Source: Chiloscyllium plagiosum (lineage: Eukaryota). Taken from it: DNA of 62,553 bases. The stretch lies in the NCBI RefSeq assembly GCF_004010195.1, contig NC_057721.1:15043561-15106113 (forward strand), written 5' to 3'. A program made the position numbers and the translations under genes. The number at the start of each line of letters is the position of its first letter. The stretch's first letter is position 1. Under the pieces are notes generated by a model. The model was not told where the DNA came from. It did no database searches and was given only the letters and a program-made list of their open reading frames with translations. Positions 9,018 through 57,725 of this stretch are shown piece by piece.

Positions 9018-9239
9018 GGACCGAAAATAACAAATGCTGGAGATCACAGCAGGCCAGACAGCATCCATGGAGAGAGAGCAAACTAACATAAGTCTAGATG
9101 ACTCTTCAGAGCTCTGATGAAGAGTTATCTAGATTCAAAACGTTAGCTTGCTCTCTCTCCATGATGCTGCCTGACCTGCTGTGATTACCAGCATTTGTTG
9201 TTTTCAGTAGATTCCAGCATCTGCAGTAAATGTGTTCCT
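9018..9239. mobile_element. Palindromic PLE-derived mini-element (two inverted pLTR halves)
   Basis: Inverted arms around the centre cagagctctg (~9107-9116). TSD agagtaggga(a/g)ctt at 9004-9017 and 9240-9253. Decayed hammerhead at 9110-9148. Confidence 0.9.
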
Positions 9240-10501
9240 AGAGTAGGGAGCTTTTTGTGGGAAGGAGGACATAAGTGGGTGGAAAGGCTATCATTGAGTA
9301 AGTCTGTAAATGGTGAAAAGCTTTGCACTTCAGATTGGTATTGATTCTGAAAGAAAGTGACAAAAGGGTATGGGGACCAATTTTCCTTTGGTACTCTCAG
9401 TATTAAAAAGAACCTTGGAGCTGGTCATGATTGGGTCTTAAGCAGAAACATTTTAGAACAATCGCCAAGATTGGATACCCTGCTGGTCTCTCCTGCTGTT
9501 GACCTTAAGTGATGCCTCCAAGATTCTGTGCACTCTCATCCTTGACCCTTCAGCCAACCTGAAGTAGGGCACTTTGTGCCTTCAGTCGAAATGGGTACAA
9601 ATAGCCTCCGACGGATGCTCATGTCCTAAACCTGCAGACGTCAGCTTTCAGACCCCCAAACCAGTTCAGATGATGGTAATCAGCCAGTCAGCTCAAACTC
9701 ACAAGTGAATTTGTTTTATTGGAGGCCAGTCATTTGGTCCCTTTTCAGCAAGATCATCTTTACTGATGAATATCTGGTTAAGTGTACAGCATTCCTCTCC
9801 TCTAGAAGAGTACAATTGTGGCCCCCTTTTTCTCTTGAGGGCTCTGCATGACTGGCTCACATTTTCTAGGCTGAACACTCAAACTTATTTACAAAGATCC
9901 ACAATAAAATCATGAGATAGCAAAGTCGGGAGTGTTCATCATCCTTATTAGTTCCAGGCCTTGAGTGGTCTAACTAGAAGTCCTTAAAATGAGCATTGTC
10001 AGGTGACCTGAAGAGGTGGTTATTGGGAGAAAGAGGGAGCAGAGTCAGTGCTGACCCATCTGCACTTCCATCTCTAGCCCACTATTGTCCATCATCACCA
10101 AGGGGAATATTTCCCAGTCAATTGTGAGGTGAATCTATTAGAATCCAACAATGTCTGTAGCCCTGTTAAGGAGTTTAGGCCTTGACCTTACCCATTATGG
10201 AAAAATCATCTTGATGCAACATATTACACAACTGTAATAACTTATTAGTCTTCATTTTTGGCTGAGTGTTTCAGTGAATGTAAATTAGGTCAGCTTTGCC
10301 AATCATTAGTCAAATATCAATTACCCAACTCATACTGACATACCTCCAACTGCTGCAACTTTCATCCAGAGAGAAGGTGGATGTAACTAAAGGGGTTACT
10401 TTAGGCAATAAATGCTCGGTATTTAACCATGACATGAGGTGGAATGCTGCCAGTACACCACTTGTTATAATTCAGATAGCCAGTTGGTGAAAGATGTTAC
10501 C

Positions 10502-10575
10502 AGAGTAGGGAGCTTTTTGTGGGGGAAGGAGGACATAAGTGGGTGGAAAGGCTATCATTGAGTAAGTCTGTAAAT
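10502..10575 (+). repeat. Local ~74 bp copy of 9240-9311
   Basis: Near-identical agagtagggagctttttgtgg...gagtaagtctgtaaat. Confidence 0.9.
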
Positions 10576-10619
10576 CTGCAAGTTTAGGACATGAGTAAGT
10601 CTGTTTTACTCAGGGTGTT

Positions 10620-10845
10620 TTTTTTTAAATTCAGTGTGGGACATGAGCATTGTTGGCTGGGCCAGAAATTGACTAGCCCTGGTGCAGCGGTGAGTTGCCT
10701 TCTTGAATGTCTGTGGTCCAAGTGCCGTAGGTAGACTCATAACATCCTTACGGTGGAAACTTCAGGATTTTGACCCAGTGGCAGTGAAGGAATGGTGGTT
10801 TTTTTTTCAAAGTCAGGACAGTGAGTGGCTGGGAGGGGAACTTAG
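10620..10845 (-). mobile_element. 3' tail of a CR1-like LINE (probably the family of 16540-17270 and 31905-34405)
   Basis: Reverse complement reads aagttcccctcccagccactcactgtcctgac...ctggcccagccaacaatgctcatgtcccac and overlaps in homology with the end of 16540-17270. Confidence 0.6.
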
Positions 10846-11249
10846 TTGTTTTTGATGCTCACGTCTTTAGAGATGGCTAAATTAAAGATGAACTTTATTA
10901 AGTCTCAGAGTACAGTCATAGGAATTAATAAAGATACTTTGAATCCAGGTCACACTTCTCAACTTCAAAAGAAATTTTCACTGATATATTAGCTTGGGAC
11001 ATCCTCACCTAACATAGTGTGCAATGACCTTTGAAAGACCTCATGGAGGATCTTGCCAGTTTAAGATGCCTATGATGAAGCTGGAAGAGTTGTGGGGGAT
11101 TGCCACCATAAAATCTGATTGTGTAGTTATACAATGAAAGGTATTCTAATTCAAAAAGGTACCTTTGCAATAAAAGGGCTGCTAACTAATGTGAACCCAT
11201 ACTGTCACTGTCTGGAAGTTTCACAGCTCAGAATACAAGATCACCAAAA

Positions 11250-11742: not shown

Positions 11743-13120
11743 GCATGCATTTGAACAAGACAATAGTCAGTGATTAGCTTAAGACCACTTACTTAATGCT
11801 GCACAGACATAGGATTGACCAAATAGCAAATAAATCCACAGTAGCATGGATTGTCCACAGGGCATTAATAATTGCTTGGAAACCAAGCAAAGAAAGCTCC
11901 CATGGTAGGGCCTACAATTACAATGGAACCAACCAATTAAAATGGATAAAATAAAGGTATTTACATTATGTTTTGCTGTCAGTTTTCTTCAGGAGACTTT
12001 TGGATTCATCATAGGAGTGGGATTGGATGGGAAAATAAATCATGTTGAATGGTTTTCTTTTCAGGATGAAATATTACTTTCATTTACCTTCCAAGTAGCT
12101 GACATTCTGCGGGACTTTTGACTCTAGATCTTAAGGGACAATTGACAGAAAGCTATACAGATTTAAAAGCTTAAAAATTAACATAGTCACAGCTTGCATT
12201 ACACAGTTTTTTTTGCAATACCTACAACATTATAGTTTTTACTAATGAGAGAAATGCTCGTTTATATTCTTATTGCCATACGGTACAGGAAATTCCAGCT
12301 TCCTCACTGAAGCTTAATTGCTCCCATCAGAGTTAAAAGTGAAAATTAACTTCCTGTAAACAACGAGTTCTTTCTCTAATAAGCTTTGGTCTGTTTAGAT
12401 ACAGTGATTCCACGATCAATTTTTTAAAAACATTATCAGAATTTGGGTATGGCTAGCATCCTTCATTAAACTTTAGGGGGTAGTGGATGTACATTTTTAA
12501 TATAAAAAAAACAACTGAGTAACTTGTTAGGCTTCTTCAGAGAAACGTTGAGATTCATAGACTTTCAAAACAGTTACAGTATAAAAAGAGAATCCATTTG
12601 CACATTGTGTCCAGGCTGGTTGTCAAGTAGTTCAGCATGGTTCTCCCTTAAAGTGACTTGCCTGTAATTACTGACCTTATCCGAACAAACACTTTGTTTA
12701 ACCAATGGTGTCCTAAATGCAAATCCTTACTCCTTTGGCTCCAACCCATGCTTGAGAAGGTTTAGAGGAATATAGCCCCCTGAATTCCTTCCTTTCTTCC
12801 TTTAGTATTTCCCAGGTGCATCTGATCCAATCCTGGGCATAGCAGCCAGTCTATAAAATATCGTCCCAATCATTAAATCTGTTCAGGCTAATTGGCAGGG
12901 AAACCCAGGGGTCAGATGCAAATAAGTCAATTTTACAAAAAAAAACCTTTGACCAATCCATTGAACTTATTTCAGTGTTCCCTCTATATTAACACCGATA
13001 CCCCCCACTCACCAGTTGGGATCCCCACCCTCAACCTCTGTCACCCGTGCAGAAAGTGCAATGATGGCTCCCTGGGTTGTTTTCCATTGCACTATTTGGG
13101 GGGGCACTGCAAGGGTGACA

Positions 13121-13966
13121 GTCGATAGAGAGTGGAGCTGGAAAAAGCACAGTCAAACAGCTGAGGAGGAGGGATTCAGTGTTTCAGGTGGGAAGCTTTC
13201 ATCAGGACTGGGGGACAGATAGGGAAGGGGGCTGCGAAATAAATAAAGAGGGGGTGGGGCTGACAGAAAAGGTGGGTGGGTTGGTGATAAGAGGTGGCTG
13301 TGATTGGTCAGTGGGAAGTGTGGAGTGGGTAGGTGGGAAGGAAGACGGACAGATAGGGTCAGGTTAAGGGGGTGGGTCAGGTGGAGAGAGAGGGCTGGGG
13401 GAAAGGTGGGTGGATGCAGGTAGAAGGTGGCTGTGATTGGTCAGTGGGAAGGGTAGAACAGATAGGTGGGAAGGAAGAAGGACAGGCAGGGTCAAGTTAA
13501 AGGGGTAGGGTGGAGGAGGAGAGCTAGGTCAGGGGTGATTTGGAAACTGGTGAATTCTCTATTAAGGCCATGTGGTTGTGAGTTCCTGAGGCAGGAGATT
13601 AGGTGGCCTTGTGTTGACAGTGGAGAAGGCCCAGAATGGACATGTCGTCAGGGGAGTGGGAGGGGAAATTGAAATGGCAGGCACCAAAAGGTGGAGTTGA
13701 TTGGAGTGTACAGACACTTCCCACTGATCAATCACAGCCACCTCCAACTCCATCCTATTCCTATTCTATTCCACCCACCTTTCCTCCAGCCTGACCCGCC
13801 CATTTATTTCGTAGCCCCCTTTCCCTCCTCCAGTCCTGATGAAAGGTTCCGACCTGAAACACTGACTTCCATCCTCCTCTGATGCTACTTGACCTGTCGT
13901 GCTTTTTCTAACTCAACTCTCTATCCACTTTGACTTTCCAGCATCTTCAGTTCTCACTATCTCCAA
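13121..13966. mobile_element. PLE with inverted pLTRs (5'-inverted insertion)
   Basis: Perfect 15-bp TSD actgcaagggtgaca at 13106-13120 and 13967-13981. Hammerhead motifs at 13174-13209 (-) and 13832-13867 (+). Internal ~125 bp tandem repeat. Confidence 0.9.
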
Positions 13967-15100
13967 ACTGCAAGGGTGACAACTGATGGATTGTGGAGTT
14001 GGGGAGCAAAGGTAGTAACTGTCCTGCTGAGTAATAAGAAGACCATACGCCACCACCTTGTTAGAACATGATGTGATGACTGGCTACGAGCTACTTCTGA
14101 CTAGGCCAGAGTGCTGCTATCTATCAGCTTCCCTATGCAAACATAGTGGGTTGTTCTATAATCTGTGGTGGACGAGAGACCACTAACAAGTCTCAGCAAG
14201 AAAGATTCCTGTCCGAGATAACATGATTCACTTTATGACATCTCAATAATGATACATGGGTTACATTAACGTTTAGGCACATTGACCATTGCTACTTAGA
14301 GGGAGGTCGGTTCTCCATCAGAAGTTCATGCTGTTTCTCCATCTGCTCAGTGCTCCACACCATTGCTTAGCAGAGCTCCAACTTAGCTCCTAGACTAATC
14401 CTTTCATAATTATTATTTTATGCAACAGCACCAAGTCTGTCTAGTTTCTACTGATGCTGGAGCTCTATGAAACTGTTTGATTGGGTAGCCATGGGGAATA
14501 TATTTACTTGTGAGGGTCAACCAAAACAAAGTGTCATAAATATAGAGTTACCACCAATAAATTCAATGGGGAATACAGGATCAATTCCTTCCAGTCAATG
14601 TGGGAAAATGTGGATCTATGGAGTCGTAAAAGGAGTAGCATAGATGTATATAGGATAGAGAGGACTAAAAGATTCTTAAGCTCAAACTTTGTAGACGCAG
14701 TATTTGTATGGATGTTTCCATTCAATTTCTGGTGATGGCCACAATATCCTGTTTCTGTGTAGCTATCTTCATCAGCAATTCACCAATTTCATTTTAATAC
14801 ACCGTGTTCACATAGATATGCTTGAACCCTAATTTCTGGTCAATGGTAAGCCCCAGGATGTTGACAGTGGGGGAATTCAATGATAGCAAAGCCATTGAAT
14901 GTTAAAGGAAGATGATTTGGCTCATAGAAAGTTGATTGTGCATCCTGGTTCAGCTATTTATCCCATTTGTCACTCTGCCACTGGTCAGCAAATGCACTGC
15001 TTATTCAAATACAAAAGTTGATGATGTTGACAGAATTTCAATGTGTAACAATATTAATGAACAGATGTTCAAAGGCTACATGCTGCCACAAACACATTTG

Positions 15101-16066
15101 GTTAGAGACAAAAAAAACTGCAGATGCTGGAATCCAAGGTAGACAAGCAGGAGGCTAGGGGAACACAGCAAGCCAGGCAGCATCAGGAGGTGGAGAAGTC
15201 AACGTTTCAGGTGTAACCCTTCTTCAGGACTGGGGGTGGGTGCAGAGCTGCAGGTAAAGGTGAGTGGGTGTGGTGAGGTGGGATAGGAAAACACAGGTAG
15301 AGGGTAGAGCCTGGTTGGTCAATGGTAGGAATGAATACATTTGGTGGTAGGGAGCAGTGGAAGGGATAGGCAGGAGCTAGTCGGGGGAAGGGAAGGGAGA
15401 TTATTTGAAATTGGAGAACTCAGTGTTAAGTCCTCTGCGCTGTAGGCTGCCCAGGTGGAAGATGAGGTGTTGTTCCTCCAATTTGCAGTCTGATTTGTTG
15501 TGGCAATGGAGGAGGCCAATGATGGTCATGCCAGAAAGGGATCGGTATGGGGAATTAAAATGAGCAGTGACTGTAAGGTCCGGTCAGCCCCTGTGGCCTG
15601 GCTGAGGTGCTCGGTAAACCGTTCTTTAAATTTATATTTGGTCTTCCCGATGTAGAGAAGACCACACTGGGAGCACCTGATGCAGTAAACTAGGTTGGAA
15701 TAGAGGCAAGTGAATTTCTGTCCCACCTGGAAGGACTGTTTGGGGCCTTGGATGCAGGTGAGGGGGAGGTGGTGTACTGGCCAGTTTTGCATCTTTCCCA
15801 GTTGCAGGGGAAGGTACCTGGGGGTTCGGGGGTAGACTGACGCAAATCAATGACGATCAAAGGGAAAAGGCAGAGAGGGGTGAGGAGAGGAAGATGTTCC
15901 TGGTGGGGTCTAGCTGGAGTTGGCAGAAGTATTTAAGGATAATGGGTTGGATGCAGAGACTGATGGGGTGGTAGGTGAGGACAAGGAGGATCCTGTCTTT
16001 ATTGCTTTTAGTGGAGGGAGGAGGTCTTAGAGCAGTGGAATGGAATGGAGGAGGTGTGATGGAGGG
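15101..16066 (-). mobile_element. Neptune-type Penelope-like element, 5'-truncated (linker + GIY-YIG + pLTR)
   Basis: NKDRILLVLTYHP, Cys-linker GTFPCNWERCKT, and FTCLYSNLVYCIRCSQCGLLYIGKT (VY...YIG). Frameshifted. Confidence 0.92.
15197..15231 (-). ncRNA. Minimal type I hammerhead ribozyme motif (GUU site)
   Basis: AGTC-CTGAAGA-A-GGGT.TAC.ACCT-GAAA-CG-TT-GACT. Stem I is AGTC/GACT and stem III is the palindrome ACGT. Confidence 0.8.
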
Positions 16067-26212: not shown

Positions 26213-26350
26213 CTGGTCCAATGATCCTTCTTCAGAGTACATTCTGAAAATGTTCTGAAGGGTCACTGGACCAGAAACATTAACTCTGCTTTCTCTCCAC
26301 TGATGCTGCCAGACCTGCTGAGCTTTTCCAGCAATTTCTGATTTTGTTAC
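26213..26350 (+). mobile_element. Degraded PLE pLTR with a short inverted arm
   Basis: ctggtccaatgatccttcttcaga ... tctgaagggtcactggaccagaaacattaactctgc. Confidence 0.65.
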
Positions 26351-26659: not shown

Positions 26660-27126
26660 TAAGAGAAAGTGAAGACTGCAGATGTTGGAAATCAGAGTCA
26701 AAACGTGTGCTGCTGGAAATGCACAGAAGGTCAGGGAGCATCCAAGGAGCAGGAGAATCGACATTTCAGACATAAGCCCTTCATCAGGAATGTGGGGGCA
26801 GGGGGCTAAGGGGGTTGAGAGATAAATAGGAGGAGAATGGGGCTGGGGGTATGGAAGGTAGCTAGGAAGATGATAGGTGAATGTAGGCGTGGGATATTGG
26901 TAATAAGTCAGAGCAGATAAGTGGGAAGGAAGATAGACAGGTAGGACAGATCAAGAGGGTGGTGCCGACTTGGAAGGTTTGATCTGAGACAAGGTGGAGA
27001 GAGGGGAGATGAAGAAACTGGTGAAATCAACATTTATGCTGTGTGGTTGGAGGGTCCCAAGGCTGAAGATGAAGTGTTTTTCCTCCAGGCATCTGGTGGC
27101 TAGGATTTGGCGGGGGAAGTGGCCCA
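26660..27126 (-). mobile_element. Penelope-like element 3' end
   Basis: Homologous to 5338-5871. Hammerhead motif at 26756-26791. Confidence 0.88.
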
Positions 27127-29004
27127 GTTATGGAAGTTGATAAAACGTATTTGTGACTACACAATGTTAAGGCAGTTAAGAAAGGTCAGAAGTTTGTCTG
27201 GTATGAGCGATGACAATGTAGGGCTGTTCAGTTAAAATAGGGTGAGCTCTTAAAAACACAAACTATGGAAAAGGTATTTCTCAGCAACATGTAACAATTA
27301 AAAAAAAACTCTAATCCTCATTTATATATTACACGGCGTTCTCAGTAGAAATGTTATCTTCTGTTTAAGCTTCCAAAGTTTTAAATGTCTTCCTCCTCCC
27401 ACACCAGAGTGATTCTTCCTGTGCCCTCTTAGATAAAGTCCCTTCACTCAACACTTTGAGATAATTGAACGGACCTCAAGTAGCAGAACACCAAGTGGTT
27501 TTGCAGTCTTTAAATTCTTCACAAGCTTAGCCTTTATTAACAGGGGATATATCTCTATCAGCTGTCTACTTGGTGATAAGCTGAAAAGACTCCTTTTTCC
27601 CTGCATGGCACACAATGTCTGTTGTAGATCTTCTCCAGATCTCGCCAGCTTACTATCTCTGAGAGTGCACACAGCAAAATAAAGATGTCTCCTCTTGATT
27701 GTTGGATATTTCAACCCATACTTAAATCATTTTTCACCTATGCCCCTGTCATCTTGGTCACATAGACTTGTCTCTGGGCATATTTCAGTGGAGATCACGC
27801 CCCCTACTTCAAACAGCTCCATGTTAACTTCAAGTAATAAATACACGTGAACATGTATTCATCTAGCAGTCCTAACATCATGTTGTGGATATTTCTTGCT
27901 GAGGTATCACCAAATATATCTGCAGCTTGGACACAACTATCCAGCAAACACATTTGAACAGCTCTCTTCAGATAGTCCAAATGTTTTGGTAGTCAGCTGC
28001 AGAACTGTGTCATATGGTATTAGGACACCTACCACACTGCAACATGAACATCTCAAGCTTATTTACATATTGACAATAAAATATTGGTTTTACCATTGGA
28101 AAGCTTTGCTTTGTAGTACAAAATACTCTGAAGTTATCAGTCAAAACTATTTTGAAACATTGATTAGAGCAGTTTTATCTCTGTATGTAAAATTTCTAAG
28201 AGATTGGTAAGAAGATACCAGTAACCCAAGGGTGGTGATTATGTTCTTTGAAGCAAAGCAATTAAAAATAATCAGACCCAATTATTAACTAGATGGGAGA
28301 TGAGATTTTGTGCACTGAAAACTGAGACATTCTGTAATTACATTAGTTACCTTATTTTGGCAACATCCTGACAAACAAGTAGTTAATTAACCAAACATTG
28401 TCATTTTTTCAAACACCAAAAACAAATTGGTCTATCACATTACAATTACTTAGGCAGCAACATTTACGTATATTGTACTATTGTGAAATTCCTTTACTAT
28501 TTATGTCTATTCAGATAAACAAGCAAATGGAAAGTTACTGAAGTGTTGATGATATGATGTTATCAATTATGCCAGTCCACAATTTCATACTGCCTTGTCC
28601 TGAAAATCGATGATGCGTGCTCGGGAACAGTTTCCTCATTTATCTATCGCCCTATGTTTGGAATGATGTCACTGATATGGAATGGTTTAAACAATGTTGA
28701 GGGCTCCATTTTTTTTTTAGGAAAGATTTGGATAGTCCTGCAGTGCCTGAGAGCCATGGTTTAAAATGGAACTCATTTTACTGAAAGTATCTAATCAATT
28801 CTGTAAATGGTCATCCTTCATGGCAGCAGATTTTGGTACAATATTTAATAAATGAGTACATACATAGGTAATATAATACAGGAGATCTCAGTTGTGCACA
28901 AAGCCCCTAGCCCAAATCTACAAATATGCACTGCCGAGCAAAGGATAAATAAATAACAGGAATACACAAATCAACTAACCTTTATCACTATTACAATGAA
29001 AATA

Positions 29005-30490: not shown

Positions 30491-30710
30491 AGATAACAAT
30501 CCACAGATAACACATGTAGGAAACCTCTCAAGGTGATTCACAGGGACATATGGATGACAGATCTTGAGCCAGAAAACACAATATTAGAAGGAGTGGCTAA
30601 AAGCTCAGTTAGGGGAATGGATATTTAGGAAGGTTTTAAAGGTAATGAGGGAGGTGGAAAGATGAAAGGATTAGATACCCAAGAGAAAGAATGAGAAAAA
30701 GAGTCGATGG

Positions 30711-31047
30711 TAGTCATGATTTGGAGACGCCGGTGTTGGACTGGGCTGTACAAAGTTAGAAATCACACAAACACCAGGTTATAGTCTAACAGGTTTATTT
30801 GGAAGCACTAGCTTTCGGAGTGCTGCTCCTTCATCAGGTGAGTGTGATGAAATCATTATCAGGAGAAAGCAGGAATCTGGATCTGAGGTTCCCATCAATC
30901 AGCCATGATATTATTAAAAGACAGAACTTAAGGAGCTGACTGGTTCTTAATTCATCAATCACCTGATGAAGAAGCAGCACTCCAAAAGCTAGTGTTTCCA
31001 AATAAACCTGTTGGACTATAACCTGGTGTTGTGCGATTTCTAATTTT
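30711..31047. mobile_element. Inverted pLTR pair enclosing captured local DNA
   Basis: Arms at 30711-30841 (-) and 30958-31047 (+). Spacer 30850-30955 matches 31653-31763. Confidence 0.9.
30806..30840 (-). ncRNA. Minimal hammerhead ribozyme motif (CUA site)
   Basis: CAC-CTGATGA-A-GGAG.CAGCA.CTCC-GAAA-GC-TA-GTG, identical to 6488-6522. Confidence 0.75.
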
Positions 31048-31154: not shown

Positions 31155-31770
31155 AATAATTAGAAAAGCTAATGGAATATTGTAATGTCGCACAGGCAGA
31201 AATAGAGAGATTATGCCTCAGTTATATAGCTGGAGACAATGGCTGGAGTATTGTGTACAATATCTTTAAGAAAAGATGTAGGTGCATTAGAGACAATTCA
31301 GACAAGGTTTATTAGACTAATACTTGGAATGGATAGACTGTCTTATGAGGAAAGGTTGGACATGTTAACTTTGTATCTGCTGTTCAGTAGAGTAAGAAGA
31401 GACTTGATTGCAACAAAAAAGATCCTGAGGGGTTTTGACAGGGCAGACGTAGAGGGGAAATTTCCTTGCATGGGAGAAGGTAGAATTAGGGGGCTCCCTA
31501 TTTTAAAAAAATCAATGGTCATCCATTTGAAACAGTTGAGGCAAATTTTTTTCTCAGTATGTTCTTCAAAATTCTTCCTGAAAAGGTGGTGGTGGCAGAG
31601 TCCTTGAATATTTGTAAAGGTGAAGTAATGGATTATTGTTAAGCAACAGGATAAATCATTATCAGGAGAAGGCAGGAATCTGGATCTGAGGTTCCCATCA
31701 GCTAATCCATGATACTATTAAAAGACACAGCAGACTTAAGGAGCTGACTGGTTCTTAATTCATGTGTTCA
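31155..31770 (+). mobile_element. CR1 LINE 3' fragment
   Basis: ORF LRKDVGALETIQTRFIRLILGMDRLSYEERL. Confidence 0.88.
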
Positions 31771-40100: not shown

Positions 40101-40142
40101 AATCAGTGCTGATATATTGCCCATAGCTCTTGTGTTTTAATT

Positions 40143-42739: not shown

Positions 42740-43700
42740 CTCAGAATTGTTATAGAGCAGGAGGAGGATATTTGGCCCATCGTGTCTACACTGGCTCAGT
42801 GAACATTTTAACTGAGTGCCATTTCTCACCTTTCTCCCATAACCTTGCATGTTTTGATATTTTAATAATTATTGAATGTCCTCTTGCATGTCTCCATTGA
42901 ATCTGCCTCCATCACACTTTCAGGCAGTGCATTCCATACCCTAACTACATGCTGTGCAAAGAGAGTTTACTCACCTTGCATTTGCTGCTTGTACAAAACA
43001 TTTTTAATCTTTGCTCTCTTGTTCTCAATCCATGTGCACATGGGAACAGTTTCTCCCTATCCATTCTGTCCAGAAGTCTCAAGTTTTTAAACTTCACATC
43101 TTCTCTTATTTTTCCTTAGAGGGAAAAACTTTCTTCAATTTATCCTCCAAGCTGAGGTTTCTCATCCCCGGAATCATCCTTCTGAACCTTTCCTCCATTC
43201 TCGCGAATACATTCACATCCTTCAAACAGTTTGGCTCTCAGAACTGTACACAATGCTCCTGCTGAGGTCTATCTAGTGTTTTATGACTTTGGAATAATGT
43301 CCCTGATCTTGTATTCAATTCTTGTATTAACGAAGTCGAGAATACTGTATACGTTATTACCAGCTTTCTCTCTACCTATTCTGCCACCTGAATAAGTTAT
43401 ATACAAATACACGCAGGTCTCTTTTGCTCCTGCACACCCTATGAAATAGTACTCTATTTTGCACACTCTCACCATATTCTTTATACAAAATGCGTCACCC
43501 ACACTAAACTTTCTGACACCAATCCACCCACCCCACTAACTTGCCAATGTCCTCTTGAAGTTCTACATTATCCTCCTCTGTTTACAATGCTCCTGAGTTT
43601 TGTATTGCCTGAAATCTTTGAAATTGTCTCCTGCATAACAAAGTTGAAATCAAATTTTTATGTAGGTTGAAAAAAAGGGTCTCAATACTGACCCTAGGTG
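42740..43700 (-). mobile_element. Old CR1 3' fragment
   Basis: CR1-type tail (ggcccatcgtgtctacactggc) and degenerate RT C-terminus. Confidence 0.65.
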
Positions 43701-46318
43701 ATCTGTCAAGGTAAGTTTAATTCTGGGAACTAAATTGTCGACTAATAATGCCAGCTGGGATCTAAACAACTGGTTATTGGACACAATGGAAGCAAGGGGT
43801 TTTGGGACACAGCGAGATAGTGTGGTTACTGTAGAAGATCAACCACAACCTTATTTCATGACAATGAGCTTTAAGGATCACATTGCCTTTGTTCCCATTT
43901 CTGAAGCTCTAATATACTTAACATACTTGTGAACTGTGGACCATTGTTCAATAAATTTCTATAGTTATGACCTGAAAAATCACAAATATTACAGTAATTC
44001 ATGAACTAGCAACATTTTAGAATTTGCTTGTTACACATCCCATTCAATTTATCTTTCCACTGATTGCAATGTTGAATGGATTCCCAGGTAGACGAGTAAA
44101 AGTAATCACCATGCATTAATTTGAAGAACACAGAAATTGAGGGAGGAAAGAACATTTCTGTGTGAATCAGTAAAATTTGGACTGAATTGTCTGACTTTGA
44201 GGACAGACCTTTAATCATTTGAAAACAAACATTGAGTCCACTCACCTTTGCAGCACCAAAAATGGCCTCAATGCCCTTTGGTAGGAGAGTAAATTGGCTA
44301 CTGTTCCTGCTCCTAACTGACGTGCAGTAAACTCTGGTGAAACTGTATGGTTGTCCTTCTATGTTAAAATAACTTGCTGCCCTTCAATATAAAAGCTCAC
44401 ACTTGGGTACCTGGATGAAGTATCAAAACAATAATGACTTGGACACCATGCCCACCAAAAATGCAACGTAAAAGCAGCATATAATCTTGTGTACAAATAT
44501 AGATCATCGGAGATGTACAGCACTGAAATAGACCCTTCAGTCCAACTTGTCCATGCCGATCAGATATCCTAACCTAATCTAGCACCATTTACCAGCTCTT
44601 GGCCCATATCCCTCCAAACCCTTCTTATTCATATATCTATTCAGATGCCTTTTAAATGTTGTAATTGTACCAGCTTCCACCACTTCATCTGGCAGCTCTT
44701 CCCATACACGCACCACCCTCTGTGTGAAAAGGTTGCCCTTTAGGTCTCTTTTATATCTTTCCCCTCTCACCCTAAACCTATGCCCTCTAGTTCTGGACTT
44801 CCCCAGGGAAAAGATCTTGTCTATTTATCCTATCCACGCCCTTCATGATTTTATAAACCTCTATCAGGTCACCCCTCAGCTTCCGATGCTCCAGGGAAAA
44901 AAGCCCCAGCCTATTCAGCCTCTCCCTATAGCTCAAATCCTCCAACCTTGGCAGCATCCTTGTAAATCTTTTCTGAACCCTTTCAAGTTTCGCAAGTTTC
45001 GTCCCTGCGATAGGAAGGAGACCAGATTTGGACGCAATATTCCAAAAGTGGCCTAACCAATGCCCTGTGCAGCCACAACATGACCTCCCAACTCCTATAT
45101 CCATTGCTCTGTCCAATAAAGGAAAGCATACAAAACACCTTCTTCACTATCCTATCTATCTACAACTCCAGTTTCAAGGAACTATGAACCTGCACTCCAA
45201 GGTCTTTGTCAGCAACGCTCCCTAGGACCTTACCATTAAGTGTACAAGTCCTGCTCTTGTGGCACCTCGCATTTATCTAAATCAAACTCTATCTGCCACT
45301 TCTCAGTTCATTGGCCCATCTGATCAAGATCCCATTGTAATCTGAAGTAACCTTCTTCACACCTCCAATTTTGTGTCATCAGCAAATTTACTAACTATAC
45401 CTCTTACGCTCACATCCAAATCATTTATATAAATGATAAAAGTAGTGAACCCAGCACCGATCCTTATGGCACTCCACTGGTCACAGGCCTCCAGTCCAAA
45501 AAGTAACCCTCCACCATCCTCTGTCTTCTACCTTTGAGCCAGTTCTGTATCCAAATGGCTAGTTCTCCCTGTATTCAATCTGATCTAACCTTGCTAATCA
45601 GTCTCCCGTGAGGAACCTTGTTGAACACCTTACTGATGTCCATTTATATCACATCTACCACTCTGCTCTCATCAATCCTCTTTGTTACTTCTTCAAAAAC
45701 TCAATCAAGTTCATGAGACATGGTTTCCCACCCATAAAGGCACGATGACTACCCCAATCAGTCCTTGCCCTTCCAAATACAAGTAAATCCTGTCCCACAG
45801 GGTTCCCTCCAACAACTTGCCCATCACTGATATCAGGCTCACTGGTTTATAGTTCCCTGGCTTTTCCCTAACACTTTTCTTAAAAAGTGGCACCACATTA
45901 GCCACCCAGTCTTCCAGCACCTCACCTGTGACGATCAATGATACAAATATCTCAGCAAAGGGCCCAGCAATCACTTCTCTAACTTTCCAGAGTTCGAGAG
46001 TACACCTGATCAGGTCCTGGGGATTTATCCACTTTTACCCATTTCAAAACATCCAGCACTTCCTCCTCTGTAATCTGGACATTTTTCAAGGTATCACCAT
46101 CTATTTCCCTACAGTCTATATCTTCCATGTCCTTTTCCATAGTAGACACTGATGCAAAATACTCGTTTAGTATCTCCCCCATCCCCTGCTGCTCCACACA
46201 AAGACAGCCTAGCTGATCTTTGAGGGGAGAAAGTGAGGTCTGCAGATGCTGGAGATCAGAGCTGAAAATGTGTTGCTGGAAAAGCGCAGCAGGTCAGGCA
46301 GCATCCAGGGAACAGGAG

Positions 46319-46354
46319 AATCGACGTTTCGGGCATAAACCCTTCTTCAGGAAT
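46319..46354 (-). ncRNA. Minimal hammerhead ribozyme motif (GUC site)
   Basis: ATTC-CTGAAGA-A-GGGT.TTAT.GCCC-GAAA-CG-TC-GATT. Confidence 0.75.
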
Positions 46355-46388
46355 CCTGAAGAAGGGCTTATGCCCGAAATGTCAATTC
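46351..46388 (+). ncRNA. Minimal hammerhead ribozyme motif (partner, CpG-decayed)
   Basis: GAATC-CTGAAGA-A-GGGC.TTAT.GCCC-GAAA-TG-TC-AATTC. Confidence 0.6.
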
Positions 46389-47733
46389 TCCTGTTCCCTG
46401 GATGCTGCCTGACCTGCTGCGCTTTTCCAGCAACACATTTTCAGCTCTGATCTTTGAGGGGCCCAATTCACTCCCTAGTTACCATTTTGTCCTTAAATGT
46501 ATTTATAAATTCCTTTTATAAGATTCGCCTTAGCCTTATTTGCCAAAGCTATCTCATGTTCCCTTTTTGCCCTCCTGATTTCTCTCTTAACTATACTCCT
46601 GCTACCTTTATACTCTAAGGACTCACTCTGTCTATCCTGTCTATATCTGACATATGCTTCCTTCTTTTTCTTTACCAAACCCTCAATTTCTCTCGTCATC
46701 CAGCATTCCCTATACCTACTACCCTTTCCTTTCACCCTAACAGCTGTGTACTATCTCTGGACTGTCATTATCTCATTTCTGAAGGCTTCCCATTTTCCAG
46801 CCGTCCCTTTACCGGCAAACATCTGCCCCCAATCAGCTTTTGAAAGTTCTTGCCCTATACCGTCAAAATTCACTTTTCTCCAATTTACATCTTCAACTTT
46901 TAGATCTGGTCTATCCTTTTCCATCATTATTTTAAAACTAATAGAATTATGGTCGCTGGCCCCATTGTGCTCCCCCAATGACACCTCAGTCACCTGCCCT
47001 GTCTTATTTCCCAAGAGCAGGTCAAGTTTTGCACCTTCTCCAGTTGGTACATTTACAGACTGAATCAAAGTTTTCTTGTACATATTTAATTTCCTGTCCA
47101 TCTAAACCCTTGACACCATGCCAGTCCAAGTCTATGTTTGGAAAGTTACCATACCATAACCACCCTATTATTCTTACAGATATCTGAAATCTTACAAATT
47201 TGTTTCTCAATTTCCTGATGACTATTAGGGGATCTATAATATTATCCCAACAAGGTGATCATCCCTTTATGTCTCAGTTCCACCAAATCATTCCCTGGAT
47301 ATATTCCCAGGAATGTCCTCTCCAATTCCATCAGTAATGCTATTCCTGATCAAAAACTGGACTGCCCCTTCTCTCTTGCCCCACCTTACACACACCCCAC
47401 ACACCCACCCCACCCCTGCATCCTTCATGTAGCATTTACATCCTGGAACATTAAGCTGTCAGTCCTGTCCATTCCTGAGCCATGTTTCTGTAATTGTTAT
47501 GATATCCCAGTCCCATGTTCTAACCATGCCCTGAGTTCATCAGGCCTTCCCTGTTAGGCCTCTTGCATTGAAGTAAATGTAGTTTAATTTATCAGTCCTA
47601 CCTTGTTCTCTCCTTTGTTCATGCTTGCCCTAACTGTTGAATTCACTTCTTTTCCCAACTGTACCAATCTCAGATTAATCTCTTTCCTCACTACCTCTCT
47701 GGTTCCCATGCCTAAACCCACCCCCCCACTAGT

Positions 47734-51570: not shown

Positions 51571-52648
51571 CAAATGTTGTGGTTGTTAACTTTACATTAT
51601 TAACGGTGGTTTTCTAAGTATAGTGGAAATTTGAATCCACATTTTAAAACAATTGTTACACTATAAAAGTATTCCAAACCTTATCCTTTCTTGCAAATAT
51701 TTTCCAAAACAGTACATTCCAATAGATTAATGAGTGATGGTTGCTAAACATTATAATAGATTTTTAATAAATAAACTTAGCTTTTTTAAAGATTGCTTTG
51801 TGAAAGTTAAGCTCAGCAGGTCACCATAAGCTGAATTTCCAAAATCAAAACAGAAGCTTGACTAGGAACTAGCAAATTCATCATAGACTTTTGGAATAAA
51901 ATCTGTTAGAGTTTTAAAATTTATAGTACTCTTGATCAGATGATTTTGGACATGAATAGGATCATTGACCAATTGCTTGGAACTTGCGGTTGAGCAGGAT
52001 CTTGAGTTCCCATTTTAAATTGATTTTACCATGTTAAAACAAATCTGTAAAAGCAGAACAGACAGAAGAGTTACAGTGCAACAAGGTTTTGAATGTGGCC
52101 TGTGCTCAGTCCAGCTTGTGCAGGTGATGCACACATATACTGACACTTTATGTCACCACTTCTTACTTTCACTTCAAGCCAGCCTTCAGTCCCATCAACA
52201 ACATGACAGATGATTTGCGAAGCTCTGACTGTCATCTTTGGAATAATGCCTTGTGCCATACACCGTGTGACAGCATGAAGGCTATTTTATACAAGCCAGA
52301 TATTTTTAAATCCCTCAAACAGAATACAAAAAGGCTACTGCATGTGATCCCTGATCATTTTGATCGCAACTGGCAGATGTCTCATGCTTCTGTTCATACT
52401 AAGTCAAAGATGATGGTATTTTGCAAAAGATGGAATCAATACATCATACAATACACAATATATGAATGAGCTGTGGATGTGATTCATCACACAGTAAGTA
52501 TCATCGCTGCAAGTAGTTCCATGCTGAAATCAATTAGAATTTGTTGATTTTTAAATAGATCATCAGGTCAATTACAAGATTTTTCTAATGCTAAGATATA
52601 TTCTCTATTGATTACCAGTTACTTGTAAATTCCTAGCTCCTTCTCAAA

Positions 52649-53260
52649 ATCATAGACTCAGATATACAGCACGGAAACAGACCTATTGGTCCAATTCGTC
52701 CATGCCTACTAGATATACTATATAAATCTAGTCCCATTTGCCAGCACTTCGCCCATATTCCTCCAAACCCTTCCTATTCATATACCCATCCAGATGCCTT
52801 TTAAATGTTGTAATTGTACCAGCCTCCACCACTTCCTCTGGCAGCTCATTCCATACATGTACCACCTTCTGCATGAAAAAGTTGCCCCTTAGGTCTCTTT
52901 TATATCTTTCCCCTCTCACCCTAAACCTATGCCCTCTAGTTCTGGACTCCCCCAACCCAGGGAAAAGATCTTGTCTATTTACCCAATCCATGCTCCTCAT
53001 GATTTTATCAACCTCTATAAGGTCACCTCTCAGCCTCCAAAGCCCTAAGGAAAGTAGCCCCAGCCTACTCAGCCTCTGCCTTTAGCTCAAATCTCCAACC
53101 CTGAATCTTTTCTGAACATTTTCAAATTTCACAACATCCTTTCTATTGGAGGGAGACCAGAATTGCACACGGTACTCCAAAAGTGGCCAAACCAATGTCC
53201 TGTATAGCTGCAACTTGACCTTCCCACTCCGCAATTCAATGCACTGACCAATAAAGGCAA
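52649..53260 (-). mobile_element. HER1/CR1 3' fragment
   Basis: TRGHRFRVRGERYKRDLRGNFF...WNELPEEVVEA. Confidence 0.95.
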
Positions 53261-53837
53261 CAGATGAATCAAATTGCAAACTATTGCATTTCTTTAAGCC
53301 TTCTTTTTGCGAAGTGCAACATGTTGGTTTGCATACCTGACAGTGTGAGGATTCATCTATCGCAGACATTTCTCAAAACTTTCTTAGAGATAAGGGGTAA
53401 AATCTGGATGTTTGATCATTTTCAATGTAGGAAATTTTACACGTTCCAAAGATTCAATGGAACACCCCATGACTTAATTTTCAGTGCACAAATGTGTGCA
53501 CTCTCTCAACAATGTATTAACCAGACACATGGGCAGAAGCTTCCTAGACCCTGAATGTTGTGGGCACAGTGAGAAAATAGTGAACATTAAATGAGATCAG
53601 CAGTAAGAAGCCTTTCGATATTGAGCAAAATGTCCTACGTTGCAGGCCAGTATTGAAGGGCGAGACAAGTTTCTCATGAGTGAGTAGAGATCCATTTGCA
53701 TGTATCAACATCTCACAATTAATGTCACCTCATTGCTTTGTAGTTTCCCATTCTCGACAATAGCCATCCTCAAAGTCAGAGCAGGTCCTCAGCAACTCCA
53801 GCTTACTCCTTGCTCCTGTGGACCTCCATGTAGGACA

Positions 53838-54625
53838 GCAGTCTGAGGCCTGTGACCAGTGGAGTGCCACAAGGATTGGTTTTGGGTCCTCTACTTTTTG
53901 TCATTTATATAAATGATTTGGATGTGAGCTTAAGAGGTTTAGTTAGTAAGTTTGCAGATGACACCAAAATTGGAGGTGTAGTGGACAGCGAAGAAGGGTA
54001 CCTCAGATTACAACAGGATCTTGAACAGATTGGCCAATGGGCTGAGATGTGGCAGATGGAGTTTAATTTCGATAAATGCGAGATGCTGCATTTTGGGAAA
54101 ACAAATCTTAGCAGGACTTATACACTTAATGGTAAGAACTTGAAAGGGTTCAGAAAAGATTTACAAGGATGTTGCCAGGGTTGGAGAATTTGAGCTTTAG
54201 GAGAAGGTTGAACAAGCTAGGGCTGTTTTCCCTGGAGTGTCGTAGGCTGAGGGGTGACCTTATAGAGGTTTACAAAATTATGGATAGGATAAACAGACAA
54301 AGTCTTTTCCCTGGGATGAGGGAGACTAGAACTAGAGGGCATAGGTTTAGGGTAAGAGGGAAAAGATATAAAAGAGACCTATGGTGCAACGTTTTCACAC
54401 AGAGGGTGGTACGTGTATGGAATGAGCTGCCAGAGGAAGTAGTGGAGGCTGGTACAATTGCAACATTTAAAAGGCATTTGGATGGGTATATGAATAGGAA
54501 GGGTTTGGAGGGATATGGGCCGGGTGCTGGCAGGTGGGACTAGATTGGGTTGGGATATCTGATCAGCATGGACAGGTTGGACCAAAGGGTCTGTTTCCGT
54601 GTAAACATCCCTATGATTCTATGAC
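53838..54625 (+). mobile_element. HER1/CR1 3' fragment with internal deletion
   Basis: SGVPQGLVLGPLLFVIYINDL...KFADDTKI. Confidence 0.95.
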
Positions 54626-55046
54626 CTCAGGGCATACTTCATGGGCAATGACTGCACATACACCCCATTCACACATGGCATTGGACACATATCAGCATTA
54701 TCGAATCATCATCATTGGCACAATTCCCATTCATCTGCCATTCTGATTGACCTTCCAATGCTGAAGTTTGGAGTGCACTGGCACCTTTCATTAGTGTTCC
54801 AATGTCAGAATACTTTACACATGGTGACAGGCATCCATTACATGAGTGATGGATCTTGATCAACTAGAGTGTATCATTGCTCGCCATTAAAGCTGTCACT
54901 CACTTTTCATCTATATTAACACTCAGTATTTCTGCTTTGCCTTGCTGAGCCTTGGTTTTGGTGGATTGCACCCTCAGCCAGAGCTGTTTCGAACAGACAA
55001 AAAGCCAGGCAGCTTGTCATAGTTGTCAGCTGTGAAGGGGCTAATT

Positions 55047-55337
55047 TTGGAGATAGCGAGGACTGCAGAGGCCAGCAAGTAAGAGTTGATAAAGAGTGGA
55101 GCTGGGAAAGGCACAGCAGGTCAAGCAGCATCAGAGGAGCAGGAGAATCGATGTTTCAGGCAGGACTCTTCATCAGGAGAGGGGAGGGGGGAGGAGGCTG
55201 AGAAATAAATCAGAGGAAGGGGATGGGGCTGGAGGAGGTGGAGAAGGTAGTTGGAATGATGATAAGTGGTTGTGATTGGTCAGTGGGAAGTGTGGAGCAG
55301 ATAGATGGGAAGGAAGATGGACAGGTTGGATCAAGTT
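55047..55337 (-). mobile_element. PLE pLTR
   Basis: Homologous to 26660-26960. Degenerate hammerhead at 55146-55180. Confidence 0.85.
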
Positions 55338-56147
55338 ATCGATTGGGGCAAAGAGCCTAATGTTGATTTAGGTAGCTGCCTCAATCTCACGTATCGTGGT
55401 GTACACAGCAAGCACACTGCGTGTGCTTCACCCAGGTAGATGGAGTAATCCTCAGTCAAAACAAGCTGGACATCCATCAGTCAGAGGTTGCAGGCACAAT
55501 AAGCACAGGAATAGACAATTCAGCTCCTTAAAGTCTGCTCTACCATTCTACACAATCATAACTGATCTTACGTTGGCCTCAACACCACTTTCCTGCCTGC
55601 TCTCCATTACCTTTAACCAGTTACTAATTAAATTTCTCTCCCCCCACCCCCCACCCACAAATTTATTCAGTATCTCAGACTCAGAAGCTGTCACTCATTG
55701 CATGGAGAGTGACCGCTGTTCCCTTCCATCGTGATGCAGATTCCAAGTGTGCAATGGGCTTGCAAATGGAGGCCATAACACCATGAGAGGAGGGTAAGAG
55801 TTTCTTTCTGCGAGGGGAAGCACTCCAGCCAAGGTTATTAAAGTTTCCAGAAGAAGTAATAGTACAGAAGGTTCATGGATCTTACTTCAAGCACAGCAGA
55901 TAAGGGGACAGTCAACCCAGGAGTGAGGCTGTTGTACTTAAATTCGCACCGTAAACATAGTGGGGAGGTTTGCTAGTGTGACTTGAGAAAGTTTAGAGGA
56001 GTTTCAGAGGGGGGGGGAGGTAATCAGAACATGTGGGAGCAGAGTAGGTCAGTCTGTGAGTGAATGAGGAGAAGGTAGAGTTGGCAAGTTGGATACAAAC
56101 TTGTCTTGGCCAAAGAAGGCAGAGGGGTAGTGGTGGAGGGGTGTTTT

Positions 56148-56435
56148 TGATTTGAGTTATTACTGTCGAGTGTACAGACATAGTGAAAAGCATTGTTTTG
56201 CGTGCTAACCAGAAAACTCATACCTTACGTAAGCACTGCAGGGTACCAGAACAAAATGCAGAATGTAGTCTTACGCTACAGAGAAGGATCAACTTTCATT
56301 TATGAGAGGTTCATCATAAGTCTGATAACAGCTGGGAAGAAGCTGTTCTTATCTGTTGGCATATGCTTTCAAACTCATCTAATAGAGGAGAGTGGAAAAG
56401 AGTATAAGCAGAGTGGGAGGGGCCTTTGATTATGT
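56148..56435 (-). mobile_element. Rex1-like LINE 3' tail fragment
   Basis: Similar to 11265-11330 (gtgtacagacatagtgaaaagcattgttttgcg). Confidence 0.55.
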
Positions 56436-56489
56436 TTTTTATCATTGAGTATTTTATTTACATTTATATTAAATTTGACCGGACATTTA

Positions 56490-57725
56490 TGACCAGTGCT
56501 GTTCTGCAGGGATCAGCGCTGGGACCTCTGACTTGAAAGAAAAATGTCAGTGGTCTGATTAGAAAGTTTGCAGATGACATAAAAATTGGTGGAGTCATGA
56601 GGAAGGTTATCAAAGAATCCAAGCGGGATATAAATCATCTGGAAAGTTGGACAGAGAAATGACAGATTGAGGTGGACAAAAATCAGAAAATTGCTGCAAA
56701 AATTCAGCAGGGCTGGCAGCATCTGTGGAAAGAAAGCAGAGATAATGTTTCAGATCCAGTGAGGTGTGAGGTGACGCATTTTGGGAGGTCAAATGCGAGA
56801 GGGAAAGTATACAGTATATGTCTGGATTCTGAGGAGCATTGATATACAGAGTCCAAGTCCATAGATCCCTGAAACTGTCAACACCTGTGGATAAGGTGGT
56901 TAAGAATACATGCATCATGCTTGTCTTCATTGGTCAGAGCACGGAGTATAAAAATTGGCAAGTCATGCTGCAGATGTATGTGACTTTGGTCAGGCCACAT
57001 TTGGAGTCCTTTACACAGGCAGCTCTGCAAAGGGTGCAGAAGAGATTTATCAGGATGGTGCATGGATTGGAGTGTTTGATAAAAGAGAGGTTGGACAAAC
57101 TTGAATTGTTTGCACTAGAGTGACAGATGCTGAGGGGTGACCTGATAGGAGTATTTAAAAAAATGATGAGAGGCATGGACAGGGTGGATTTGTTGGAGTC
57201 TCCTTCCAATGGTAAAAATGTTAAGTAATAGGGGGCATAGGTTTAAAATGAAAGGGGGAAGGTTGAAAGGAGATGTGCGAGGAAAATGTTTTACAGAGTG
57301 CAGTAGGTTGAAAAAATGTGGTGCTGGAAAAACACAGCAGGCCAGGGAGCATCCGAGGAGCAGGAGAATCGACATTTCGGGCTTAAGCCCTTCTTCAGGG
57401 GGCTTATGCCCGAAATGTCGATTCTCCTGCTCCTCAGATGCTGCCTGGCCTGCTGTGTTTTTCCAGCACCACATTTTTCAACTCTGGTACTCCAGCATCT
57501 GCAGTCCTCACTTTCTCCTAGAGTGTAGTCGGTGCCTGGAATGCACTCCCAAGGGGAGGTGATAGAAGCAGATATGATAGCAATGTTTAAGAGGCATTTA
57601 GAAAGACATGAGCAGGAAGAGAAGCAAACCATATGCAGGCTGATGGGGTTAGTTTAGAATAGCATGTCAGCACAGACATGTTGAGTCAAAGGACCTGTTC
57701 CTGTGCTGTATTGTTCTATGTTCTT
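56490..57725 (+). mobile_element. CR1 LINE 3' fragment with two PLE inserts (~56675-56760 and 57305-57518)
   Basis: KFADDIKIGG, MYVTLVRPHLE, LQRVQKRFIRM. Confidence 0.85.
57305..57518. mobile_element. Palindromic PLE mini-element
   Basis: Inverted arms. TSD agagtg(c/t)agt. Hammerhead at 57367-57402 (-); the partner core is deleted. Confidence 0.92.

Follow-up and report, generated by a model that had tools for sequence, protein, structure and literature searches.

The window, by which we mean the whole 62.5-kb stretch of DNA analyzed here, contains five palindromes (elements A to E) as well as single copies of related sequences (Table 1). Self-BLAST identified A to E as the only long local inverted repeats in the window (arms no more than 1.3 kb apart; E values of 1e-29 to 1e-91); two additional short rows from this search belong to D or match C weakly over 38 nt. 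Gapless identity between paired arms is 83/96 in A, 97/100 in B, 77/82 in C, 164/191 in D and 86/93 in E, and by hammerhead polarity the arms are oriented head to head throughout. Elements A, B and C measure 222, 219 and 211 bp. An earlier note on this DNA had described five such palindromes flanked by target-site duplications (TSDs) and had read them as possible non-autonomous derivatives of Penelope-like retrotransposons (PLEs). All five exist, at a density of 5 per 62.5 kb, with two coordinates corrected: E begins at 30704, not 30711, and C spans 57309-57519, not 57305-57518.

Table 1. Palindromic elements, single copies and associated features of the window
Feature	Position	Strand	Remarks
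Element A, PLE palindrome	9018..9239	.	Left arm without tail; right arm with ~31-nt tail
TSD of A	9004-9017 / 9240-9253		13/14, 10 exact
Element B, PLE palindrome	46228..46446	.	Tailed arm on - strand (46354 to 46228); tail-less arm on + strand (46354/5-46446)
TSD of B	46213-46227 / 46447-46461		15/15
Element C, PLE palindrome	57309..57519	.	Tail-less arm on - strand, CTGA box included; tailed arm on + strand
TSD of C	57295-57308 / 57520-57533		12/14 by eye; 9/10 by script
Element D, PLE palindrome	13121..13966	.	5'-truncated tail-less PLE copy on - strand (~13713 to 13121) plus inverted tailed arm (13714-13966)
TSD of D	13106-13120 / 13967-13981		15/15
Broken C-terminal GIY-YIG endonuclease ORF inside D	13531..13682	-	Two frames; 20/27 and 13/27 identical to P0001, E 3e-9
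Element E, probable PLE palindrome	30704..31046	.	Second arm family, unrelated to A-D; tailed arm on - strand, ~105-bp spacer, tail-less arm on + strand
TSD of E	30692-30703 / 31047-31058		11/12, 9 exact
Spacer of E	30850..30955	+	Copy of 31653-31763, same strand
Likely donor of E spacer (candidate)	31653..31763	+	~700 bp downstream, within a longer old repeat
Single 5'-truncated copy	5337..5871	-	Endonuclease C-terminal coding, UTR, hammerhead motif, tail-less end; TSD 13/14
Single 84-bp arm, E family	6440..6523	-	Starts a few nt before CTGA; TSD 9/10
Longest PLE remnant of the window	15100..16039	-	Linker, GIY-YIG core, UTR, tailed hammerhead arm; E 7e-40 to P0001; no convincing TSD
Single copy, B/C arm family	26662..27127	-	Tail complete; adjoins coding for the endonuclease C-terminus; no convincing TSD
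Single tailed arm with UTR, related to D arms	55047..55338	-	No convincing TSD

One arm of each element had been described as complete and the other as truncated. The asymmetry is real and not random: what was taken for truncation is a PLE end that lacks the tail, with 31, 32, 37 and 37-38 nt of 3' sequence missing in A to D and 47-49 nt in E. C and D share the aligned position of this end with the single copy at 5337, as E does with that at 6440. Published PLE tails occur at one end only and measure 30-40 bp (PMC8557442), with 31 bp given in PMC3846280; the tail of E exceeds this range. For an anole PLE it was demonstrated in vitro that RT has two internal start sites with the tail between them, and that both strands of the target undergo cutting and extension (PMC11167929). 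The last 7 nt of the tail-less arm of B are microhomology with the target at 46447, as had been noticed earlier.

A type I minimal hammerhead motif is seen in most arms. B and D carry the CTGANGA-stem-GAAA motif in each arm, C and E in one; in A it is decayed. The right arm of C has no CTGA box. The arm hammerheads gave 0 Rfam matches at the gathering score, and seven isolated motifs, for which cleavage is only predicted, folded with z-scores from -2.2 to +1.7. Whole elements gave z of -26.5 for B, -20.7 for E and -15.0 for A, the three folded, and the predicted hairpin of B reaches -190 kcal/mol. The suggestion that either strand would yield a ~100-bp dsRNA hairpin suitable for Dicer or ADAR is only a folding prediction.

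The arms had been thought to fuse at or near the CTGANGA core, which holds for A and B only. Arms of A overlap at a 4-nt self-complementary AGCT immediately 5' of the CTGA box, and B would likewise be joined by microhomology. C has a blunt junction (57399/57400) at which the tailed arm, the one without a CTGA box, begins 9 nt further 3' than the tail-less arm. In D the arms begin ~120 and ~510 nt upstream of the hammerhead core, the tail-less arm extending ~390 nt further 5', and the - strand copy contains an internal tandem duplication of ~133 bp. A PLE endonuclease ORF persists in this copy as a broken 3' end; D is therefore not ORF-less, a description that had been applied to these elements. 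The arms of E are separated by a spacer that matches its likely donor at 90% over 111 columns by BLAST (103/109 gapless), the next-best full-length paralog in the window reaching 66%.

TSD lengths range from 12 to 15 bp across A to E and the sequences are unrelated to one another. Only E had been thought to have an inexact TSD; it is inexact, and so are those of A and C. Among 1500 random boundary pairs, an exact 9-bp flanking repeat arose in 2 and a 10-bp repeat in 0; taken alone, the TSD of C falls short of the exact repeat used in this control. The host repeat of B has a paralog at 39436-39616 that represents an empty site, with the TSD sequence present once. Convincing TSDs were not found for the single copies at 15100, 26662, 55047, 7203 and 35932. 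Comparison of TSD divergence with arm divergence in D gave no sign that its two arms had different templates (P 0.10).

A profile search of the window located 19 arms of the A-D type, 8 palindromic and 11 single; the E family has 2 palindromic arms and 1 single. Single arms at 1534 and 3479 begin within the hammerhead. Arm families of A to D adjoin endonuclease coding sequence at 5640-5877, 15323-16039 and 26984-27127, and inside D at 13531-13682. The A-D arms are thus the 3' ends of PLEs, adjoining GIY-YIG coding sequence elsewhere and in D. This linkage covers the A-D arm families, with the family of E outside it, and element A itself is tied to PLEs through arm homology.

A profile search built from four fragments accepted 36 of 410 candidate homologs; with a single fragment, 0 of 7 were accepted. 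The best homolog, P0001, a whale shark record (E 4.6e-24), has an RT match followed by GIY-YIG. The former is an RVT_1 match with E 9e-5, below the curated cut-off, that includes a YIDD motif; the latter scores 23.2 bits, above the cut-off of 22.6. A linker motif of the CX2-5CxxC kind (CX4CxxC) precedes GIY-YIG in P0001, P0006 and P0026 and is partly present in the remnant at 15783-15836. As the CX4CxxC linker is assigned to the Neptune and Nematis clades (PMC8557442), for which CCHH in the endonuclease is a further criterion, the A-D homologs may tentatively be placed with them on the basis of this motif. In the ESM Atlas the top clusters are unnamed and the nearest named one is GIY-YIG (0.87, 21% of members), which serves as a lead only. 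A Pfam scan of two in-frame window fragments returned nothing meaningful, and a metagenome pattern scan 0 matches. Elements A to E show the features of endonuclease-positive (EN+) PLE insertions: an ORF 5' of the arms (A-D), a tail at one end, and an inverted 5'-truncated copy with a variable TSD in 5 of 5; judged by motif, a minimal hammerhead also appears to be present.

The earlier note had proposed a comparison of central junctions, in which identical centers would mean that the palindrome itself amplifies and variable centers that it forms at each insertion. The centers are variable. B and C, the sole pair compared within a family (86-88% identity between B arms and C arms), differ by 12 nt at the center. 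Partner arms of one element (80/83, 77/82) are more alike than arms of different elements, although this is also expected from arm-to-arm conversion or fold-back. The C center can also be derived from a B-type center by a later 12-nt deletion, in which case both the B/C difference and the non-nesting of C vanish. The spacer of E is about as similar to its local donor (90-94%) as the arms of E are to each other (92.5%). A master element arriving from elsewhere would not carry this local spacer, which therefore counts for formation at the site, although the hairpin center could also have acquired it later, as a repair patch. A shared central junction with linked arm variants was found neither in the B/C pair nor in E.

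We also aligned contigs of three organisms (36,490, 39,717 and 43,443 contigs) to the single copy at 26662..27127. Among the 18 of 1784 loose-end rows listed, contig ends cluster at 26789-26792, 2-5 nt before the CTGA box; those at 26790-26791 enter AT-rich flanks (consensus agreement 0.30-0.32), and those at 26792 are partly due to a sister subfamily with a different UTR. The strand changes in 1 of the 15 joints listed of 287, with 5, 2 and 10 contigs in the three organisms, and other fold-back joints vary in position. No dominant fold-back junction appeared among these 15 joints, a weak census, since assembled contigs probably break at perfect palindromes and a high-copy fixed junction could stay hidden. 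Depth in X1, which is not equivalent to copy number, is ~9 million on the arm core and 0.2-0.4 million on endonuclease coding. Taken together, the palindromes were most likely formed anew at each landing site.

We consider it probable that A to E are heavily 5'-truncated PLE insertions in which both nicked target strands served as primers and two short cDNAs of the PLE terminus that carries the hammerhead (the pLTR) were joined back to back. The endonuclease would make staggered nicks 12-15 bp apart. One primer would be extended from the outer and the other from the inner of two internal start sites, with the tail between them, and the inner start would often be aided by a few nucleotides of target microhomology. 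The cDNAs would mostly end at the 5' edge of the hammerhead. Joining of their 3' ends would rely on microhomology in A and B, be blunt in C and follow the copying of nearby DNA in E. Priming of one strand alone would leave a single arm. The resulting copies are probably dead on arrival.

Twin priming had been offered earlier as one origin of the palindromes, and it fits their anatomy best. Its main competitor is fold-back at each site, whereby a short palindrome lets a PLE cDNA (or an antisense template) act as its own primer and copy itself, with the second arm stopping before the tail; self-priming has been proposed for head-to-head PLE junctions (PMC3846280). The self-complementary 4-mer shared at the junction of A, the nested arms of B and the private variants common to both arms are all consistent with it. 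However, the tail-less arms of D and C are the longer at the 5' end, so that neither arm can have arisen by fold-back copying of its partner; D is non-nested either way, and C unless a later deletion is invoked. Non-nesting in these two elements favors two primings, and a second start site accounts for the constant tail-less end better than a stop does. We regard fold-back as unlikely. Quite improbable is a non-autonomous element of ~215 bp whose hairpin transcript is recopied in trans by PLE proteins. A, B and C are indeed alike in size, a sense pLTR is available on either strand, one fold-back joint recurs in 3/3 organisms, pLTRs can mobilize other DNA in trans (PMC3846280), and putative non-autonomous PLE derivatives are known (PMC8557442; bioRxiv 10.64898/2026.07.22.740005). 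Against this, the centers of B and C differ and that of E is local DNA, arms are closest to their partners within each element, single arms outnumber palindromic ones in the window, no junction of high depth occurs among the joints listed, and the hairpin of B is predicted to bury both hammerhead motifs.

The view that these are a separate class of palindromic mini-elements is not supported: junctions vary (B vs C, the E spacer, D), arms also insert singly with their own TSDs, and the geometry of inverted pLTRs plus tail, with 8-10 bp TSDs, was already published (PMC3846280, PMC8557442). A retrozyme-like hairpin unit had been suggested as well. Non-LTR retrozymes, circulating as ribozyme-cut circular RNAs, are derived from PLE pLTRs (bioRxiv 10.64898/2026.07.22.740005) and would account for the type I minimal motif in most arms, but known ones are head-to-tail tandems with canonical hammerheads on one strand (PMC7229834). 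Here the two motifs lie on opposite strands and so cannot excise a retrozyme unit, the window holds no tandem array of these arms, and none reached the Rfam gathering score; we find this origin very improbable. Almost no likelihood attaches to a MITE family (a cut-and-paste DNA transposon) built from pLTR sequence, for all that A to E are short, mostly non-coding, palindromic and flanked by TSDs. Fixed terminal inverted repeats with constant transposase-type TSDs had been named in advance as the mark of a true MITE; instead the ends match at only 5-10 of 20 terminal positions, an asymmetry that refutes the MITE reading, and the TSDs are long and variable. Arms are contiguous with the ends of PLE ORFs, and single arms have their own TSDs. 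The earlier opinion that the elements are retro-derived, with PLE pLTR arms, is supported.

As elements, A to E are ordinary, short leftovers of PLEs, retrotransposons of a known kind. It is possible, though we hold it doubtful, that such shark PLE stumps record the integration process itself on a genome scale: a dimeric enzyme would prime both strands at the two internal starts, in most cases within the pLTR with which the transcript begins, and the cDNAs would run off after ~90-125 nt at the RNA end just before the hammerhead, like a strong stop. If so, the non-nested arms would overturn the fold-back model of head-to-head junctions. A minority junction, seen in 5, 2 and 10 contigs of the three organisms, starts at 26759, the first base after the predicted hammerhead cut. 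It would be a trace of ribozyme-cut RNA acting as template in vivo, but is explained just as well by loss of the DNA between two short direct repeats.

PLE palindromes are so numerous that counting alone could decide between two primings and fold-back for inverted PLE ends, and counting could also address why cDNAs stop at the hammerhead 5' edge. Annotation tools would misfile such palindromes as MITEs. Should many of them be located within transcribed introns, they would supply sharks with large amounts of hairpin RNA of ~90-100 bp, in a way akin to inverted Alu pairs.

LINE-1 5' inversions arise by twin priming, in which microhomology lets the second target strand prime on the RNA, and a head-to-head junction forms with the TSD kept. 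The inverted and direct parts of LINE-1 are different stretches of the RNA, whereas both shark arms span the same pLTR, and a palindrome results. Non-LTR retrozymes share with A to E a short, non-coding structure, a type I hammerhead and a relationship to PLE pLTRs, but are head to tail with same-strand ribozymes, in contrast to the inverted pairs seen here (PMC7229834; bioRxiv 10.64898/2026.07.22.740005). The minimal metazoan PLE hammerheads of Cervera and De la Pena (2014, PMC4209133) have the same core boxes, short stem I and palindromic helix III remnant. Motif pairs on opposite strands are described there 100-700 bp apart, with mostly single motifs from truncated PLEs; the shark pairs can be just a few nucleotides apart, their activity is predicted, and sharks are not named in the accessible text of that paper. 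In the titles and abstracts of the papers searched, no shark-specific description of PLE palindromes was found.

The green anole Poseidon element, studied in vitro (Frangieh et al. 2024, PMC11167929), shares the pLTR hammerhead and the two internal RT starts that define the tail; both target strands are cut and extended, and a dimer is predicted. A to D would belong to a different clade, as judged from the CX4CxxC linker of their homologs, and inverted junctions are left unexplained in the accessible part of that report. The closest counterparts are the EN+ PLE insertion units (Arkhipova et al. 2013, PMC3846280; Craig et al. 2021, PMC8557442), in which a 5'-truncated copy adjoins an inverted copy at a head-to-head junction, with a tail at one end, a TSD, microhomology joins and unrelated DNA captured between pLTRs. 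Compared with these units, as far as they are described in the accessible text, the shark arms are usually cut down to a hammerhead module of ~90-125 nt with 5' ends clustered at the hammerhead 5' edge, the TSDs are 12-15 bp rather than 8-10 bp, and the density is very high.

Self-BLAST of the window recovered five long local inverted repeats and no others. These are elements A to E, each with two arms head to head in hammerhead orientation between target-site duplications (TSDs) that match at 12 of 14 to 15 of 15 positions (Table); the palindromes reported in the earlier note are thus real. A, B and E are predicted to fold as long hairpins (z-scores -15, -26 and -21). Among 1500 random boundary pairs, exact flanking repeats of 9 bp arose by chance twice and of 10 bp never. 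The TSD of B is a true duplication, since a paralog of its host repeat at 39436-39616 carries the sequence once, and the 7-nt microhomology described at 46447 is present. Some details required correction: TSDs are inexact in three of the five elements rather than in E only, and D, described as lacking an ORF, contains coding sequence. Fusion of the arms at or near the CTGANGA core holds in part, but the right arm of C has no CTGA box and E has a spacer.

Palindromic elements, and matches to the whale shark protein record P0001
Feature	Position	Arm identity without gaps	TSD	E value
Element A	9018-9239	86.5%	13/14	
Element B	46228-46446	97%	15/15	
Element C	57309-57519	93.9%	12/14 (read by eye)	
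Element D	13121-13966	85.9%	15/15	
Element E	30704-31046	92.5%	11/12	
P0001 match	15323-16039			7e-40
P0001 match	5640-5877			1e-16
P0001 match	26984-27100			5e-10
P0001 match inside D	13531-13682			3e-9

A 74-bp, 97% identical copy of the right flank of A lies 1.26 kb downstream (10502-10575) and begins exactly where the TSD of A begins; it appears far younger than A, whose arms are 86% identical, and may be a patch templated during repair of a break at the edge of A. The left-arm UTR of D (13268-13535) includes an internal tandem duplication of about 133 bp, 83% identical. B and C lie inside older repeats of a LINE-like 3'-end type, which we take to be CR1/L2-like; many 84-90% identical copies of this 3' end occur in both orientations at 38300-45000, 52600-54600 and 61100-61300.

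Arms of the A-D type number 19 in the window (8 in palindromes, 11 single), as counted with an arm profile built from 18 of them. Broken coding sequence lies upstream of the arm in three single copies and in the left arm of D. A four-fragment coding profile matched 36 of 410 candidate proteins, the best being P0001 (E 4.6e-24); the named homologs, from Rhincodon and Chiloscyllium, suggest that the DNA comes from a shark. In P0001, an RT region (RVT_1 E 9e-5, below the curated cut-off; YIDD at 99) is followed by a CX4CxxC linker and then by a GIY-YIG domain that scores above its cut-off. Because P0001 matches three stretches elsewhere in the window as well as the interior of D (Table), homology identifies the A-D arms as 3' ends of Penelope-like elements (PLEs), probably Neptune-like, with A linked through arm homology alone. 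The proposed retro-derivation from PLE-type arms is supported by this continuity with PLE coding sequence in other copies and D. The E family, with a third, single copy at 6440-6523, shares the hammerhead motif and geometry of A-D, the ORF link being established for A-D arms only. The tailed arm of E stops just past an ATG reading MTTID (30700-30717, minus strand), which may be the start of its parent ORF, since in PLEs described so far the tails of the terminal repeats (pLTRs) take in the initial codons. Another broken GIY-YIG ORF end, distinct from the first, at 32550-33000 (minus strand; tblastn E 1e-4 to another homolog, P0031) has no DNA match elsewhere within the window and resembles another PLE clade, presumably Poseidon-like.

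Each element does have a shorter arm, as the earlier note had it, but the "truncated" arm is a PLE end without the 3' tail. The missing 3' segments measure 31, 32, 37, 37-38 and 47-49 nt. In the alignment, C, D and the single copy at 5337 share one position for the short end, and E shares its own with the single copy at 6440; in B the short end lies inside the microhomology.

The two ends of an element do not form inverted repeats (5-10 of 20 terminal positions match) and the TSDs are long and of varying length, which argues against MITEs. Retrozymes are same-strand tandem units according to PMC7229834 and bioRxiv 10.64898/2026.07.22.740005, and no such units of the arms were found in the window. 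The predicted hairpin could be a Dicer or ADAR substrate. That the palindrome itself amplifies, a possibility raised with a check of central junctions, is contradicted by the variable junctions of the window. B and C form one family (86-88% identical between elements, 96% and 94% within), and their centres differ by 12 nt, although the centre of C could have arisen from a B-type centre through a later deletion. In D, one arm bears ORF sequence and the arm joined to it is shorter. The spacer of E matches 31653-31763 (90% by BLAST, 103/109 without gaps; next full-length paralog, 66%), has diverged about as much as E's arms, and shares short words with its source at both ends; it was copied from DNA 700 bp away, though it could be a repair patch of later date. 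These observations speak against the palindrome multiplying as a unit.

The PLE origin, TSDs, tail asymmetry and variable junctions are established in the window. We infer that staggered nicks in the target would allow both strands to be primed, each from a different one of the two internal start sites, and the two cDNA ends to be joined. A fold-back copy is necessarily nested in the first cDNA, so nesting separates fold-back from such twin priming. In D, the tail-less arm exceeds the tailed arm by about 390 nt on the 5' side, and the tailed arm exceeds it by 37-38 nt on the 3' side; neither is therefore nested in the other. The arms of C show the same pattern, by 9 nt, and A, B and E are compatible with both two-strand priming and fold-back. 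Arm 5' ends cluster at stem I of the hammerhead, on its 5' strand, and not at the predicted ribozyme cut, which lies some 28 nt to the 3' side. The simplest explanation would be a template RNA beginning at the cluster, in which case synthesis primed in the 5' pLTR would run off after about 90-125 nt; RT stalling there is the alternative. Among single arms, 26232-26387 (TSD 10-12 bp) starts with a very short fragment of its own hammerhead region in inverted orientation, ends in about 40 nt of unassigned sequence, and may be a minimal fold-back junction; 1534-1622 and 3479-3552 have short flanking repeats and start within the hammerhead motif, not at its 5' edge.

Contigs of three organisms were compared with the single copy at 26650-27130. 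Matching contigs numbered 36,490, 39,717 and 43,443, which indicates a very abundant family in each organism. Eleven of the 18 loose-end entries listed (of 1784) fall at 26789-26792, preceding the CTGA box by 2-5 nt; among those listed, ends at 26790-26792 occur in 358, 555 and 728 contigs of one DNA sample, X1. Ends at 26790-26791 run into AT-rich sequence (agreement 0.30-0.32), as expected from unrelated flanks of single arms, and part of the signal at 26792 is UTR of a sister subfamily. Full-tail ends pile up at 26663 (271 and 310 contigs among those listed). One of the 15 joints listed (of 287) changes strand, from 26759 to 26791 (5, 2 and 10 contigs); 26759 is the first base past the predicted cut, ambiguous by 1 nt, and this minority joint could reflect deletion between two 4-nt direct repeats. 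Further fold-back joints lie at different positions. No fixed high-depth junction appears among the joints listed, a weak census because contigs probably break at perfect palindromes.

We found no description of such elements from sharks, and no pairing of pLTRs with twin priming, among the openly available papers listed. The window adds a locally copied spacer (E) and arms that are not nested. The structure itself corresponds to the insertion signature already published for PLEs. PMC8557442 describes an inverted, 5'-truncated copy adjoining the PLE 5' end and a tail of 30-40 bp, frequently at one end only; PMC3846280, inverted pLTRs with TSDs of 8-10 bp, one pLTR with a 31-bp tail, palindromes at head-to-head junctions and unrelated DNA captured between pLTRs; PMC4209133, minimal hammerheads on opposite strands 100-700 bp apart; and PMC8969392, inverted pLTRs and 3' extensions among PLE peculiarities. 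PMC11167929 demonstrates in vitro cutting and extension of both strands by a PLE protein, with reverse transcription initiating at two internal sites bounding the tail. Compared with these published insertions, elements A to E carry the same signature in its shortest form.
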